From an uncultured Fidelibacterota bacterium (GTDB taxonomy: Bacteria; Fidelibacterota; Marinisomatia; Marinisomatales; UBA1611), in the NCBI GenBank assembly GCA_937893835.1, contig CALCSS010000042.1, positions 1-50,036 of the forward strand: 50,036 nucleotides of DNA. The letters run 5' to 3'. The position numbers were made by a program, and so were the translations under genes. Positions 26,946 through 47,277 of the stretch are shown in pieces. The notes under the pieces are model-generated. The model made no database searches, was not told the DNA's origin, and was given only the letters and a program-made list of their open reading frames with translations. Every line of letters begins with the position of its first letter. Positions within the stretch are counted from its first letter, which is position 1.

Positions 26946-27317
26946 GTGCATAAGCAAATTCTTATTACCGTTGACTCGCACTATGTGCCCGATCGCTCCA
27001 GTCCGACCCAGTCTTATTTTCTTTTTTCATATTCTATTCGCATACACAATGATTCCAAGAGTCCGATAATATTAATAGGTCGGTATTGGCACATTACAGA
27101 TGGGTCTGGTATCAGTGAGGATGTATATGGCCCAGGCGTGGTCGGGAAAAAACCAACCATAGAACCAAACAGTTTTTTTGAATACACAAGCTTTTGTCCT
27201 CTTAGAACCCCCGTGGGCTTTATGGAGGGTTCTTACAGGGTTCTAAATAAAGAAGGCAAAGAGTTTAGTGTTAAAATAAAAAAATTTCGCCTACTGGCCA
27301 GTCAGGTTTTAAATTGA
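26946..27317 (+). CDS. apaG: ApaG protein
   Basis: FSYSIRIHN, RYWHITDG, GPGVVGKKP, FEYTSFCPL.TPVGFMEGSY. Confidence 0.92.
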   Translation: MHKQILITVDSHYVPDRSSPTQSYFLFSYSIRIHNDSKSPIILIGRYWHITDGSGISEDVYGPGVVGKKPTIEPNSFFEYTSFCPLRTPVGFMEGSYRVLNKEGKEFSVKIKKFRLLASQVLN

Positions 27318-43400: not shown

Positions 43401-43517
43401 GGCACATCATAAAAAAAGCCCCCGGTTTCACTGGTCTTTATTTTCTTGAAGAAAACCTATCTATTGTTTATACTCATATTAACCGAAGTCTTTGAATAAT
43501 AACGCCTTGAGGTAAAT

Positions 43518-44711
43518 ATGAAGAAAACAAATTTAAAAACCCCGTTAACAATCATAATTTATTTTTCTTTTGTAGTGATCTCTTTTGCTCAGCGGCTTGA
43601 CCCACAACAAACCCCCTACGAAGAATTACGATCCATTGTTGAAACGGCATCACGTTCTCAGCAAAAAGTTTGGGTAGAGGACTTTACAGGCCTCAACTGA
43701 CCATACTGTCCATCTGCGAGTTTCGCACTAGACACGCTTTTAAGAGAGTTTCCAAACACACTATTCACTACAGAGATACACAGCCCAAGCTATACCCCAG
43801 ACGATAGTGACTTCGACATTCCATCTGCCTGGGAAACCAGAACAGAACTCTACAGCGTTGGTGGAATTCCCCACACCGAGTGGAATGGTCTCCTTTCTCA
43901 GGTCGGAGGATCTAGTGGTGGAAACTGGGAATCTATTTACCCCGGCTATTCTGAACTAGTTCAGACCATGGCCATTAATGAATCTCCCTGGTCTATTGGT
44001 ATTTCTGGTGGCTATGAACCTGGTCAAGATGTCAATTTTGACATAGAGATATTGATCGATGACATAGACTCAACGGTAAACACCTCAGACCTATACCTGG
44101 AAGTGTTTGTTGTGGAGGACAGTATCTACTCTTACTGGGGATCGGTAGACCAGTGGCACAACGCGCGCTACGTACTACGGACATACCTTACGAAATCTGA
44201 AAGCAATAAATATCCAATAAGTATTAGCAATGCCAATGAGTCGGAACTCTTTACTGGTACCTTTTCTCCTTCTGATGCCTGGGTAAGCGACAATCTTAGT
44301 ATCATTGCATTTATACAGAGGTTAGACGGGTGTTGTGAAGAACCTGTATATCAGGTCAACAGATCAAGAATAACCGACCTGCACCCCGACCCAGATGGTG
44401 ATGGTCTAACATACCTATATGACAACTGTACCTATGACTACAACCCCGACCAAGAAGACTCTGATGGAGACGGACTTGGAAATGTTTGCGACGGGTGTAA
44501 TGGATTGGTAAACATTGTGGGTAATATCAACCTAGACGCTGAAGGAGACGATTTTACACCGATCATTGGCGTTGAAGATGTTCTCGCCTTTTCGGATCTA
44601 CTAGAAAACAATGACCTGATCAATGACTGTCACTCTATTGATATGCTCGAGGATGGTGAAATCAATCAGTGGGACCTAATTGTTTTAGTTGATCTGGTCA
44701 TGGCAGACTAA
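43518..44711 (+). CDS. Secreted selenoprotein: thioredoxin-fold (Omp28-like) domain with UxxC, TSP type-3 repeats and dockerin-like tail (397 aa, Sec61)
   Basis: ORFs 43518..43700 and 43968..44711 share a frame, and 43701-43967 has no stop. Read-through gives WVEDFTGLN-U-PYCPSAS...EIH...YSVGGIPHTEWNG. GAGG ribosome-binding site and signal peptide at the 5' end. Confidence 0.85.
43701..43734 (+). promoter_or_regulatory. Putative bacterial SECIS hairpin
   Basis: TGTC-catc-TGCGA-gtt-TCGCA-cta-GACA (43707-43734) starts just 3' of the UGA at 43698-43700, with an apical-loop G 20 nt downstream. Confidence 0.65.
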
Positions 44712-44736
44712 GACCTGGAAGAGGCTGCCTAGAAGG

Positions 44737-45516
44737 CTAGCCCTTTATACCATCTAGATTGTTTCTAGATGCATGATAGTTCCACCCCCTAAGGGTAAGC
44801 TGTAGGTTGGTGTGTGGAGACTCTTCTGTTTCATCTTTTCCTGAATATAGTTGAATCAAAACGGTTTTTCTTGGTTTCTCTGATCTATTTGCATTGGAGC
44901 CGTGTATTGTGCAACAGTGAAAGAAAAGTACGTCACCCCTTTTTGCATTTATTGCAGTGGCAGAGTCCAGACTGTGTTTTCCATGAATTTTCTCTAATGA
45001 TGAATGACCATCGGATCCTTGTATCTTACCCGTTTTGTGTGACCCCTTGACAACTCTAATTCTTCCCATCCCCACACCCGCATCAGATAGATGAACAACC
45101 GCAGCTATCATAGAATTATTCTTGGTAGGAAAGTATGACCAGTCTTGGTGTAGTGGAAATGCAGAACCCCTCAGCGGAGGTTTTAAAAAGAGCTTTGTAT
45201 GGTGTAAGACAATGTTGTTTCCAATGATCGATTCTGTGGTATCTAGCAGTTGTTTGTCTTGCACCATCTTTAACATTTCATAGGAGTAGCTCTGTACATT
45301 GTGAGTGTGTAACACCGTAGAGTTTGGGTCTTCAATACCAGCCGTTAGATTACTGCCCCAACGGGCGTTTATGTCTTCACCACTATTTTTAATTTGATCA
45401 ATGATCCTGTCAAATTCTTTTTCTAAAAGTAGAATCCTTTTTTCATCAAACAATCCTCTTGCAACGTAGTATCCATTGTTGTTAAAACTGGGTTGAGGGT
45501 CTTGGCTCATACTCAC
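44737..45516 (-). CDS. Phytanoyl-CoA dioxygenase (PhyH) family Fe(II)/2-oxoglutarate oxygenase
   Basis: F.NNGY, KLFLKPP, PLHQD, GSHK, GDVLFFH...IHGS.ANRS..PR. Confidence 0.88.
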   Translation of the reverse strand: MSMSQDPQPSFNNNGYYVARGLFDEKRILLLEKEFDRIIDQIKNSGEDINARWGSNLTAGIEDPNSTVLHTHNVQSYSYEMLKMVQDKQLLDTTESIIGNNIVLHHTKLFLKPPLRGSAFPLHQDWSYFPTKNNSMIAAVVHLSDAGVGMGRIRVVKGSHKTGKIQGSDGHSSLEKIHGKHSLDSATAINAKRGDVLFFHCCTIHGSNANRSEKPRKTVLIQLYSGKDETEESPHTNLQLTLRGWNYHASRNNLDGIKG

Positions 45517-46298
45517 TCCCTATATATAATAGGTGTTATGGATGGGTCTTTTAGTTGGTCAAGGTAGTGTTCGTTGTCGCCCTTGATGACAATTCTTTCT
45601 GCGCTATCTGTACAAAAGTGAACCACCATGCCAACACGTGGTTTTTTGTCGAGATTGGCCTGAGATGAGTGATAGGTCAGAGATGAGTGTATACTAACTT
45701 CGCCTATTTTTAGGTTACCACTGACGATCTCTGCCCCCCCATGATGTTTTTCTAAGATCTTATCTTGACCGACAAGGTCCTTGTCAAAAAAATCAAGACC
45801 CTCCAACGCGCCCCAGTGATTAGACCCTGGAACAAACCTAACGGGGCCAGAGCTCAAAGACACATTAGACAAGGCTATCCAAGCGGTGAACAGGCCATCT
45901 TCTCCCCAAAATGGCCAATACTGTGCGTCCCTGTGCCATCCTGCATTACCACTGTTTCCTATGCTTTGAGGTTTCCAAACCACCTGAGAGTGCCACACCT
46001 GTATCTTTTTTGCGCGCGTTGCCTCAGCAAGAGCCCTGCCAAAATTATTATTTGTAACAAGACTCCACACCGCATCATTGCATAGGTGAGGTTTGTCTAT
46101 TTTTATGATTTTTCTTGGGTCGTCTCCAGTCTCCCAAAATCTTCTTTCTGGTTGTCTACCGGTAGCGTATTCACCATTTATAATATTCCACAGACCACTA
46201 CGCGCGGACTCTGAATCCTCTTTTGAAAAAATAGTTGGAAGAAAACAAAAACCATCATTGTCCAGATCATAGTTTTTCTCAGGGCCTGACATGCGCAT
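45513..46298 (-). CDS. Phytanoyl-CoA dioxygenase (PhyH) family Fe(II)/2-oxoglutarate oxygenase
   Basis: WKP, GWHRDAQYW, TAWIAL, FVPGSNHW, HSSLTYHSSQAN...PR. Confidence 0.88.
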   Translation of the reverse strand: MRMSGPEKNYDLDNDGFCFLPTIFSKEDSESARSGLWNIINGEYATGRQPERRFWETGDDPRKIIKIDKPHLCNDAVWSLVTNNNFGRALAEATRAKKIQVWHSQVVWKPQSIGNSGNAGWHRDAQYWPFWGEDGLFTAWIALSNVSLSSGPVRFVPGSNHWGALEGLDFFDKDLVGQDKILEKHHGGAEIVSGNLKIGEVSIHSSLTYHSSQANLDKKPRVGMVVHFCTDSAERIVIKGDNEHYLDQLKDPSITPIIYRE

Positions 46299-46302
46299 GT
46301 CT

Positions 46303-47277
46303 CTATTGAAGGTTTTGTGGTTTATACAAGGACATTACCCAGGAGCTATCCTCTTCACTCATTAGGTTGCCAAGCGAAGCTGCAACTTCAACCTGCCTGG
46401 TGTTTCTCTGGCCAAGAAGCACACAACCAGATGACACACCATTAAAAAGAGCATCAACGATTCCATGCATCGTAGGGTTACTGTGGTTTGCAAACCTTTG
46501 GTCCAAGAGAGCTTTGTTTTGTTTCATTTTATGAACTATTGTTTGGCTTGCAAAATCCTTTATCCCGGATCTGTGGTCTCCACTTTCAAAACTTGTTGGT
46601 TTATCATACTTACCCGTTAGAAGACCATGTTTTAGTGGAGAGAAAAAGCAAACTCCTATATTGTTTATGTTAACATATGACGAAAGACCCGACTCAATAT
46701 AGTTGTCATCCATTACGTTTCTGTATGGTTGTATAACATCAGGGTCACACCTTTCAATATATTTTAAAATGTTATCACTAGACCAATCTGATAGACCAAT
46801 GAACCTTGTCTTTCCTTGATCTTTGAATTTTCTAATAACCTCTAACGCACCATCAAAATACTCCCCATTTTTACCAAAGTTACAATGATGGAGATAGACA
46901 AGGTCCACGCAGTCTGTTTTTAGGTTATTCAATGAGCGATCCAAATTATGTAACATATGTTTCGGGTCATACCAGTGAGAGTGTGGCCCCCTATCCCAAC
47001 CAACCTTTGTTGCTAAAAAAATATCTTTTCTTGGGACCTTGTCCCACATGTTCCCTATTATGGTCTCCGACCTTCCCTCACCATAAACATCTGCTGTATC
47101 CCAGTGGTTAATGCCGTGTTGCCACGCGCTTAGTAAGGCCTTTCTTGAGTCTTCGTCACTCTGACCAGCCCAACCCACTGAAAACTTGCCAACCGTGTTT
47201 GCGCCACCATAGGCCCATGTTCCAAGGCTTATGGCAGACACCTTAACATTAGTGCGACCCAAAACTACTTTTCTCAT
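46303..47277 (-). CDS. Aldo/keto reductase
   Basis: LGRTNVKVSAISLGTW, WDTADVYGEGRSE, LATKVG, SLNNLKTDCVDLVYLH, SPLKHGLLTGKY. Confidence 0.92.
   Translation of the reverse strand: MRKVVLGRTNVKVSAISLGTWAYGGANTVGKFSVGWAGQSDEDSRKALLSAWQHGINHWDTADVYGEGRSETIIGNMWDKVPRKDIFLATKVGWDRGPHSHWYDPKHMLHNLDRSLNNLKTDCVDLVYLHHCNFGKNGEYFDGALEVIRKFKDQGKTRFIGLSDWSSDNILKYIERCDPDVIQPYRNVMDDNYIESGLSSYVNINNIGVCFFSPLKHGLLTGKYDKPTSFESGDHRSGIKDFASQTIVHKMKQNKALLDQRFANHSNPTMHGIVDALFNGVSSGCVLLGQRNTRQVEVAASLGNLMSEEDSSWVMSLYKPQNLQ

Follow-up and report, generated by a model that had tools for sequence, protein, structure and literature searches.

Does the in-frame TGA at positions 43698-43700 of a marine metagenomic contig end a short peptide, or does it encode selenocysteine (Sec) inside one longer protein? 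We examined this question in a 50,036-nucleotide stretch of DNA, hereafter the window, from an uncultured Fidelibacterota bacterium (assembly GCA_937893835.1, contig CALCSS010000042.1). The source is a metagenome-assembled genome (MAG), G000, which is 71% complete and spans 1.99 Mb on 250 contigs; the gene in question lies on its contig C42. The lineage named in the titles of related loci is Candidatus Marinimicrobia/Neomarinimicrobiota. Our answer, to which we give a probability of about 0.93, is that positions 43518-44711 (+) are one Sec-decoded gene for a 397-residue exported selenoprotein of family NF045500 in a Marinimicrobia (SAR406) bacterium. Coordinates are those of the window and refer to the forward (+) strand unless marked otherwise.

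Reading frame and conservation of the TGA codon

The frame opens with the ATG at 43518 and meets the TGA after 60 codons, in the context VWVEDFTGLN-TGA-PYCPSASFA. The same frame is then open for 336 more codons (43701..44708) up to a TAA at 44709-44711. The complete selenoprotein gene (43518..44711) comprises 397 codons, Sec61 included, plus the TAA stop, with no second stop or frameshift across them. Standard open reading frame (ORF) finding cuts the locus into 43518..43700 (60 aa) and a 247-aa ORF from the ATG at 43968. A preliminary description of this DNA had pointed to the 60-aa ORF ending in EDFTGLN(stop)PYC and to the 336 open codons behind it, and this arrangement was confirmed on the sequence. 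Read as Sec, the UGA (43698..43700) supplies U61, the first residue of a U-P-Y-C motif (43698-43709). The read-through protein (P0001) matches the NCBIfam profile NF045500.1, 'Omp28-related selenoprotein', with 553.7 bits against a cut-off of 200; the match spans residues 14-395 and profile positions 4-376 of 377.

We collected homologous frames from fetched loci and from the whole genome, translated with TGA read through, at a match E <= 1e-10. The TGA stands at the same codon of the motif F/M-[TS]-x3-U-x2-C in 59 of the 62 distinct frames. The identities of these TGA-bearing frames to P0001 range from 21 to 77%, and Cloacimonadota MAGs are among them. The remaining three frames are two fragments short of the site (L031, whose contig-end start lies just after it, and L040) and a TlpA-like protein with a UxxC of its own. 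Across 41 related genomes, exactly one TGA was present in 43 of 44 DNA-level matches with E <= 2.4e-59, and the one other match lies at a contig end and covers the protein only from residue 63 onward. When 151 genomes of the phylum were sampled, 7 of them yielded matches above the NF045500 cut-off, 16 in total, and all 16 contain one TGA; the same search of 14 control genomes gave no match. Finally, Cys occupies the Sec site in two relatives of one genus (G024:C16 and G010:C69), in the sequence FTGAH[L/Y]CPYCG. The preliminary description had suggested looking for a TGA conserved in relatives and for homologs with Cys opposite the UGA, and both were found.

The 59 frames include a second Marinimicrobia subfamily (TNETUP[Y/G]CG) and sequences of Cloacimonadota MAGs (FTQTWUGYCP), at 21-30% identity. 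Distant UxxC relatives at 21-31% identity, from Marinimicrobia MAGs (L063-L066) and Cloacimonadota MAGs (L067-L069 and L074), keep the TGA, and several of them belong to far longer frames, of 587-735 codons. A collection of 5.8 billion proteins holds about 74 close homologs of P0001. Nearly all are shorter, with starts scattered downstream of the TGA, the signature left by gene callers that restart after a stop. The sole full-length entry, P0061, has W at the Sec position (LNWPYCP); its gene caller apparently read the TGA as Trp.

The stretch is also present, nearly word for word, in marine or seawater sequencing runs of 13 studies, RNA libraries among them. Four runs were aligned to the window, giving the DNA contigs X10 and X12 and the RNA-library contigs X14 and X15, the last two from one study. 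No variant at 43698-43700 was seen in any of the four. X14 (43497-44581) and X15 (43579-44752) bridge the TGA. The RNA-library contigs stop near the gene ends and the DNA contigs extend beyond on both sides, which weakly hints at a monocistronic transcript covering both halves of the gene. The start of X14 at 43497, just downstream of a promoter-like site (43446..43474), is a weak hint in favor of this site.

Downstream hairpin and selenocysteine machinery

A hairpin resembling a Sec insertion sequence (SECIS) element lies within the coding sequence at 43707..43734. Its core stem pairs 43715-43719 with 43723-43727 around a GUU loop (43720-43722), and the loop starts 19 nt after the UGA. Alignment A2 comprises 47 distinct segments of 54 nt from the main group; the consensus structure given by RNAalifold is precisely this 5-bp stem closed by the GUU loop. 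Pair 21-33 is CG in 31 sequences, UA in 13, AU in one, UG in one and unpaired in one; pair 24-30 is GC in 40 and AU in seven; pair 23-31 is CG in 38 and UG in nine, which are G-U wobble changes; and pairs 22-32 and 25-29 hardly vary. The loop bases G26, U27 and U28 are invariant, and U27 fills the third, synonymous place of an AGT Ser codon that never varies. The columns that covary fall on third codon positions, of Ser and Ala codons in pair 21-33 and of Ala and Phe codons in pair 24-30. The covariation at synonymous sites and the invariant U27 therefore argue for a constraint on the RNA, not on the protein. When a 7-pair helix was tested, its covariation score was reached by none of 500 shuffles, and all slid registers scored lower. 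All five G000 paralogs retain the hairpin. In the distant subfamilies, a different and longer hairpin with a GGA loop occurs about as far from the TGA. A general extension of the stem by the outer pairs (columns 19-35 and 20-34) was rejected, 33 and 40 of the 47 sequences, respectively, being unpaired there. In the window copy, RNAfold also pairs an outer stem, 43707-43710 with 43731-43734, which was seen only in some copies.

The genome carries genes for Sec synthesis and insertion, all over their profile cut-offs. selA (503 bits) and selB (342 bits) lie side by side on contig C244, and selD (394 bits) lies at C103:11649-12575 (+) (L001). Neither selA nor selB has an internal TGA or other stop, and SelD, too, is a selenoprotein, encoded with an in-frame TGA in GSGUACK. 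Among five other MAGs of the same genus, selA was found over the cut-off and without stops in four and as a partial copy in the fifth. Together, the TGA shared by 59 of 62 frames, the covarying hairpin and the presence of selA, selB and selD uphold the earlier proposal that the UGA is a Sec codon in a UxxC motif. The accompanying expectation of a full set of sel genes held for selA, selB and selD but not for selC, which was not found.

On this basis, the UGA would be read as Sec by SelB and Sec-tRNA, with the in-frame hairpin (5-bp stem, GUU loop, 19 nt downstream) directing the insertion. The product would be exported by the secretory pathway, and its signal peptide would be cleaved after SFA24. 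Bacterial Sec insertion is usually inefficient, and some termination at the UGA is expected as a by-product.

Several points weigh against a Sec-decoded gene. To our knowledge, selenium incorporation has been measured for no member of the family. The tRNA-Sec was not found in the 71%-complete G000: the best match to Rfam RF01852 reaches 38.4 bits against a cut-off of 47, ARAGORN lists 19 tRNAs in all and no SeC, and blastn-short with the tRNA-Sec of three relatives gave no match. Nor was it found by Rfam scan and DNA search in the five same-genus MAGs (G001-G005), the MAGs of the genus being 68-93% complete, and an Rfam match over the cut-off was obtained in 18 of the 26 genomes scanned, G000 counted among them. 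In addition, taken by itself, the hairpin of the window copy folds no more stably than expected by chance (-9.1 kcal/mol, z -0.29, with 72 of 200 shuffles folding as well). The RNA-library contigs, for their part, may contain DNA and do not prove transcript ends.

The hairpin's stability was not used as evidence, because the fold of the single copy is not better than shuffles; its significance comes only from conservation and covariation across homologs. The preliminary description was thus right that a hairpin follows the UGA, and the hairpin is conserved with compensatory changes, but the window copy by itself does not stand out from shuffled sequence. As for the tRNA-Sec gap in G000, loss in assembly or binning is the most likely cause. 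In each of the three relatives examined, the tRNA-SeC(tca) was verified with ARAGORN. The gene that adjoins it there matches C197:11534-11779 of G000, where the neighboring tRNA is tRNA-Met(cat) (C197:11337-11410); this comparison does not account for the missing tRNA-Sec, nor does it decide the question. selA, selB and selD are not adjacent to tRNA-Sec in these three relatives. Three SAR406 single-cell genomes appear under 'orphan SelD' in the accessible part of PMC5029168, and the available portion of PMC8318568 only lists a Marinimicrobia bin, with nothing on its selenoproteins.

The absence of a detected tRNA-Sec from all six MAGs of the genus favors the alternative that survives best, namely that the UGA is read through as Cys or Trp and that the genus may have lost tRNA-Sec. 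We give this a small chance. selA is present in G000 and, over the cut-off, in four of the five other MAGs, with a partial copy in the fifth. An intact selB, a selD that itself encodes Sec and a hairpin kept in five paralogs would not be maintained without tRNA-Sec. The MAGs are incomplete, at 68-93%, and only 19 tRNA genes were assembled in G000.

The chance is slighter still that the UGA terminates and that the locus makes two products, a 60-residue peptide and a separate protein from the ATG at 43968. This ATG does open the 247-aa ORF, the entry of the protein collection for this locus (P0002) is that product, and some termination at the UGA is expected in any case. However, residues 62-150, which lie between the TGA and the ATG at 43968, are strongly conserved at the protein level. 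The thioredoxin fold and the NF045500 profile both run across the two points, and a protein from 43968 would lack the signal peptide and the active site.

We hold it very improbable that the locus is a pseudogene whose TGA arose by a recent nonsense mutation or through an error of sequencing or assembly. The splitting of the locus by standard ORF finding, and of its homologs by the gene callers of the protein collection, would fit such damage. Against it stand the 59 of 62 frames, some with as little as 21% identity, that have TGA at this very codon, the 397 codons free of a second stop or frameshift, and the contigs X10 and X12 and those of the RNA libraries, all without a variant at the codon; the possibility of an error or recent mutation, raised at the outset, is thus answered by independent DNA and RNA assemblies that keep the TGA. 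Equally improbable is a genetic code (4 or 25) in which all TGA codons of the organism specify an amino acid, as the W printed in P0061 might suggest, because TGA is an ordinary stop, as previously noted for apaG: it closes 315 of 983 genome frames of at least 250 codons and 11 of 43 window frames of at least 150 codons, the ApaG/DUF525 ORF (26946..27317, TGA at 27315-27317) included, selA and selB have no internal TGA, and every homolog has a single TGA, which invariably falls on the UxxC position.

Domains, paralogs and surroundings

The protein was modelled with AlphaFold2 from a 44-sequence alignment (mean predicted local distance difference test score, pLDDT, 83.8; block means 89-97 over residues 51-290). 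Residues 1-24 (43518..43589; MKKTNLK...SFA, followed by Q) form a predicted secretory-type signal peptide of hydrophobic character, as judged from the translation, and the model places a helix at residues 8-24 with low confidence. Residues 1-60 contain no Cys, and the signal peptide accordingly has no lipobox. A thioredoxin-fold domain follows at about residues 48-153 (43659..43976), supported by the model and by Foldseek. Strand 51-57, U61..C64 and helix 64-77 succeed one another in the thioredoxin arrangement. P118 in a GIPH loop is invariant and probably has cis geometry; we take this loop to be equivalent to the GIPT loop of E. coli thioredoxin. The best Foldseek match is HBP35 (5y1a, E 3.4e-13), then 2axo, the Omp28 domain 2r2c (E 1.9e-5) and many thioredoxins.

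Residues ~158-285 (43989..44372) resemble the Omp28 beta-sandwich, judging from the 2r2c match and from PF11551, which hits residues 182-285 with 23.8 bits, below its curated cut-off of 34.9. NF033782, the other Omp28 model, likewise scores 45.7 bits against 150. With both Omp28 scores short of their cut-offs and no lipobox Cys in its signal peptide, the protein is related to Omp28 in fold but does not belong to the Omp28 lipoprotein family.

The tail begins with Asp-rich repeats at residues 286-330 (44373..44507) that resemble calcium-binding thrombospondin type 3 repeats, as suggested by weak profile and Foldseek matches. NF047638 matches residues 291-345 with E 2.8e-9, below its cut-off, and D291, D293, D295 and the DNC motif (D302, N303, C304) are invariant. 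Residues 331-397 (44508..44708) appear to form a dockerin-like module of two loop-helix units. Modelled separately, residues 286-397 gave a pLDDT of 86.2; residues 352-363 and 384-396 are helical. The top Foldseek rows for the tail are type I dockerins (2vn6_B, 6kgc_B and others), with TM-scores to the target of 0.66-0.82 and root-mean-square deviations of 1.7-2.9 Å; thrombospondin rows (1yo8, 2rhp, 1ux6) have E values of 0.09-0.5.

From this architecture, the mature protein would consist of a thioredoxin-fold domain with U61-P-Y-C64, an Omp28-like beta-sandwich, calcium-binding thrombospondin type 3 repeats and a dockerin-like module. Sec61 would attack the substrate and Cys64 would resolve the selenenylsulfide intermediate, and the dockerin-like tail may tether the protein to the envelope in a calcium-dependent manner. 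For this function, an extracytoplasmic selenol/thiol-disulfide oxidoreductase with an envelope-tethering tail, we put the odds at about even. What speaks against it is that Pfam TSP_3 reaches only E 0.1 on the tail alone, that the dockerin rows of Foldseek are weak (E 0.08-0.5), and that Pfam Dockerin_1 (PF00404) is matched neither by the protein nor by the tail alone.

Five paralogs are present in G000, each with a single TGA and the hairpin. Besides the window gene on C42, they lie at C5:1470-2699, C24:41335-42486, C51:3185-4447 (-) and C63:4681-5883 (-). In relatives, four to five copies stand in tandem on the same contig (G013:C52:3507-10964 and G022:C22:3459-11031), again with a single TGA in each copy. 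In addition, two TlpA/ResA-like frames of G000, at C63:3662-4576 (-) (identical to L128:1163-2077) and C10:264-1112 (-), have an in-frame TGA in FTSWUP[S/Y]C and share the thrombospondin type 3 and dockerin-like tail of the Omp28-related protein. The frame on C63 directly adjoins the paralog at C63:4681-5883 and appears to use a second TGA as a true stop.

Cohesin-like proteins are possible partners for the dockerin-like tails. Matches to the cohesin domain (PF00963) in G000 are marginal, with 24.5 bits at C115:137-463 (-) and 21.5 at C47:9812-10129 (+) against a cut-off of 24.1. It is conceivable, and in our estimate unlikely, that the SAR406 lineage displays a set of UxxC selenoproteins on its surface through the shared tail, as an extracellular selenoenzyme array assembled by cohesin and dockerin. 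No description of such an array was found in literature searches on Omp28 selenoproteins, Marinimicrobia selenoproteins and SAR406 selenocysteine. The residual novelty of the locus is the shared anchoring tail together with the paralog arrays, which were not found described in the literature searched.

The gene stands alone in its surroundings. A Shine-Dalgarno-like GAGG (43509..43512), read from the sequence, precedes the ATG by 5 nt. The promoter-like site at 43446..43474 (TTGAAG, 17 nt, TATACT) is a candidate only, the region holding three such sites against 3.0 expected from shuffles, and a scan for promoters and terminators around the gene gave nothing above chance. A sodium:solute symporter gene lies upstream on the same strand. 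Beyond the selenoprotein gene and convergent with it are two tandem phytanoyl-CoA-dioxygenase-family (PhyH) genes (44737-46298 (-)), followed by an aldo/keto reductase gene (46303-47277). This neighborhood offers no functional clue.

Family membership and comparison with known systems

The window gene is a member of an already described and curated selenoprotein family and is not new. According to a table in a 2026 review (PMC13188914), NF045500 corresponds to the hypothetical protein GOS_C of Zhang and Gladyshev 2008; the equation rests on that table. The preliminary description had expected standard annotation to split and miss the gene. Gene callers do split it, and its homologs start downstream, but the curated NF045500 profile matches it at 553.7 bits, so it is not hidden.

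The locus illustrates cleanly how Prodigal-type callers cut a selenoprotein gene in two. Its close homologs in the protein collection are almost all truncated at the N-terminus, with the signal peptide and the active site lost, and re-calling such genes with NF045500 would restore the lost N-termini. The biology adds little, as the family, the UxxC motif and the SECIS element were reported in 2008, as far as the accessible text of PMC2398784 goes, and have been curated. With a multi-copy family that has an apparent anchoring tail, Marinimicrobia are well suited to studies of the role of exported selenoproteins in the ocean.

We compared the locus with five known systems. First, HBP35 of Porphyromonas gingivalis (5y1a) is the best structural match, with 256 aligned columns and a TM-score to the target of 0.59, and is likewise an exported protein, but it shares only 14% identity with the window protein. 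It has a thioredoxin-like domain with further domains, uses Cys and not Sec, carries a C-terminal domain of the type IX secretion system where the window protein has a dockerin-like tail, and is reported to bind haem. Second, the Omp28 lipoprotein family (PF11551, NF033782; 2r2c) shares the beta-sandwich and gives weak profile matches, whereas the window protein carries Sec where the first Cys would be and has no lipobox Cys. Third, the type I dockerins of cellulosomal enzymes appear to share the two units of calcium loop and helix; no polysaccharide-degrading context was seen around the window gene, and the cohesin matches in G000 are marginal. Fourth, bacterial SECIS elements of the E. coli fdhF type are also hairpins within the coding sequence shortly after the UGA, with an apical loop opening with G and then U, but the hairpin of the window is very small, with a conserved stem of 5 bp and a loop of 3 nt. 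Its distance of 19 nt from the UGA to the loop falls within the 16-37 nt that the bacterial SECIS model of Zhang and Gladyshev 2005 reportedly allows.

Finally, the closest system is NF045500/GOS_C itself. The accessible text of the 2008 study (PMC2398784) describes GOS_C as a new family in the Global Ocean Sampling (GOS) data, with a thioredoxin-like fold, a UxxC motif and a SECIS-like element. It counts 74 Sec sequences and 312 Cys homologs there, whereas Sec forms far outnumber Cys forms among the close relatives collected here. The thrombospondin type 3 and dockerin-like tail and the multi-copy Marinimicrobia arrays were not seen in the available parts of the GOS_C literature (PMC2398784, PMC13188914), and neither 'dockerin' nor 'Marinimicrobia' occurs in the text of the review. 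No family-defining feature differs: the window gene shares with NF045500/GOS_C, as far as the accessible parts of its literature describe it, a full-length match, the UxxC motif, the thioredoxin-like fold, the SECIS-like hairpin after the UGA and the origin in marine metagenomes.

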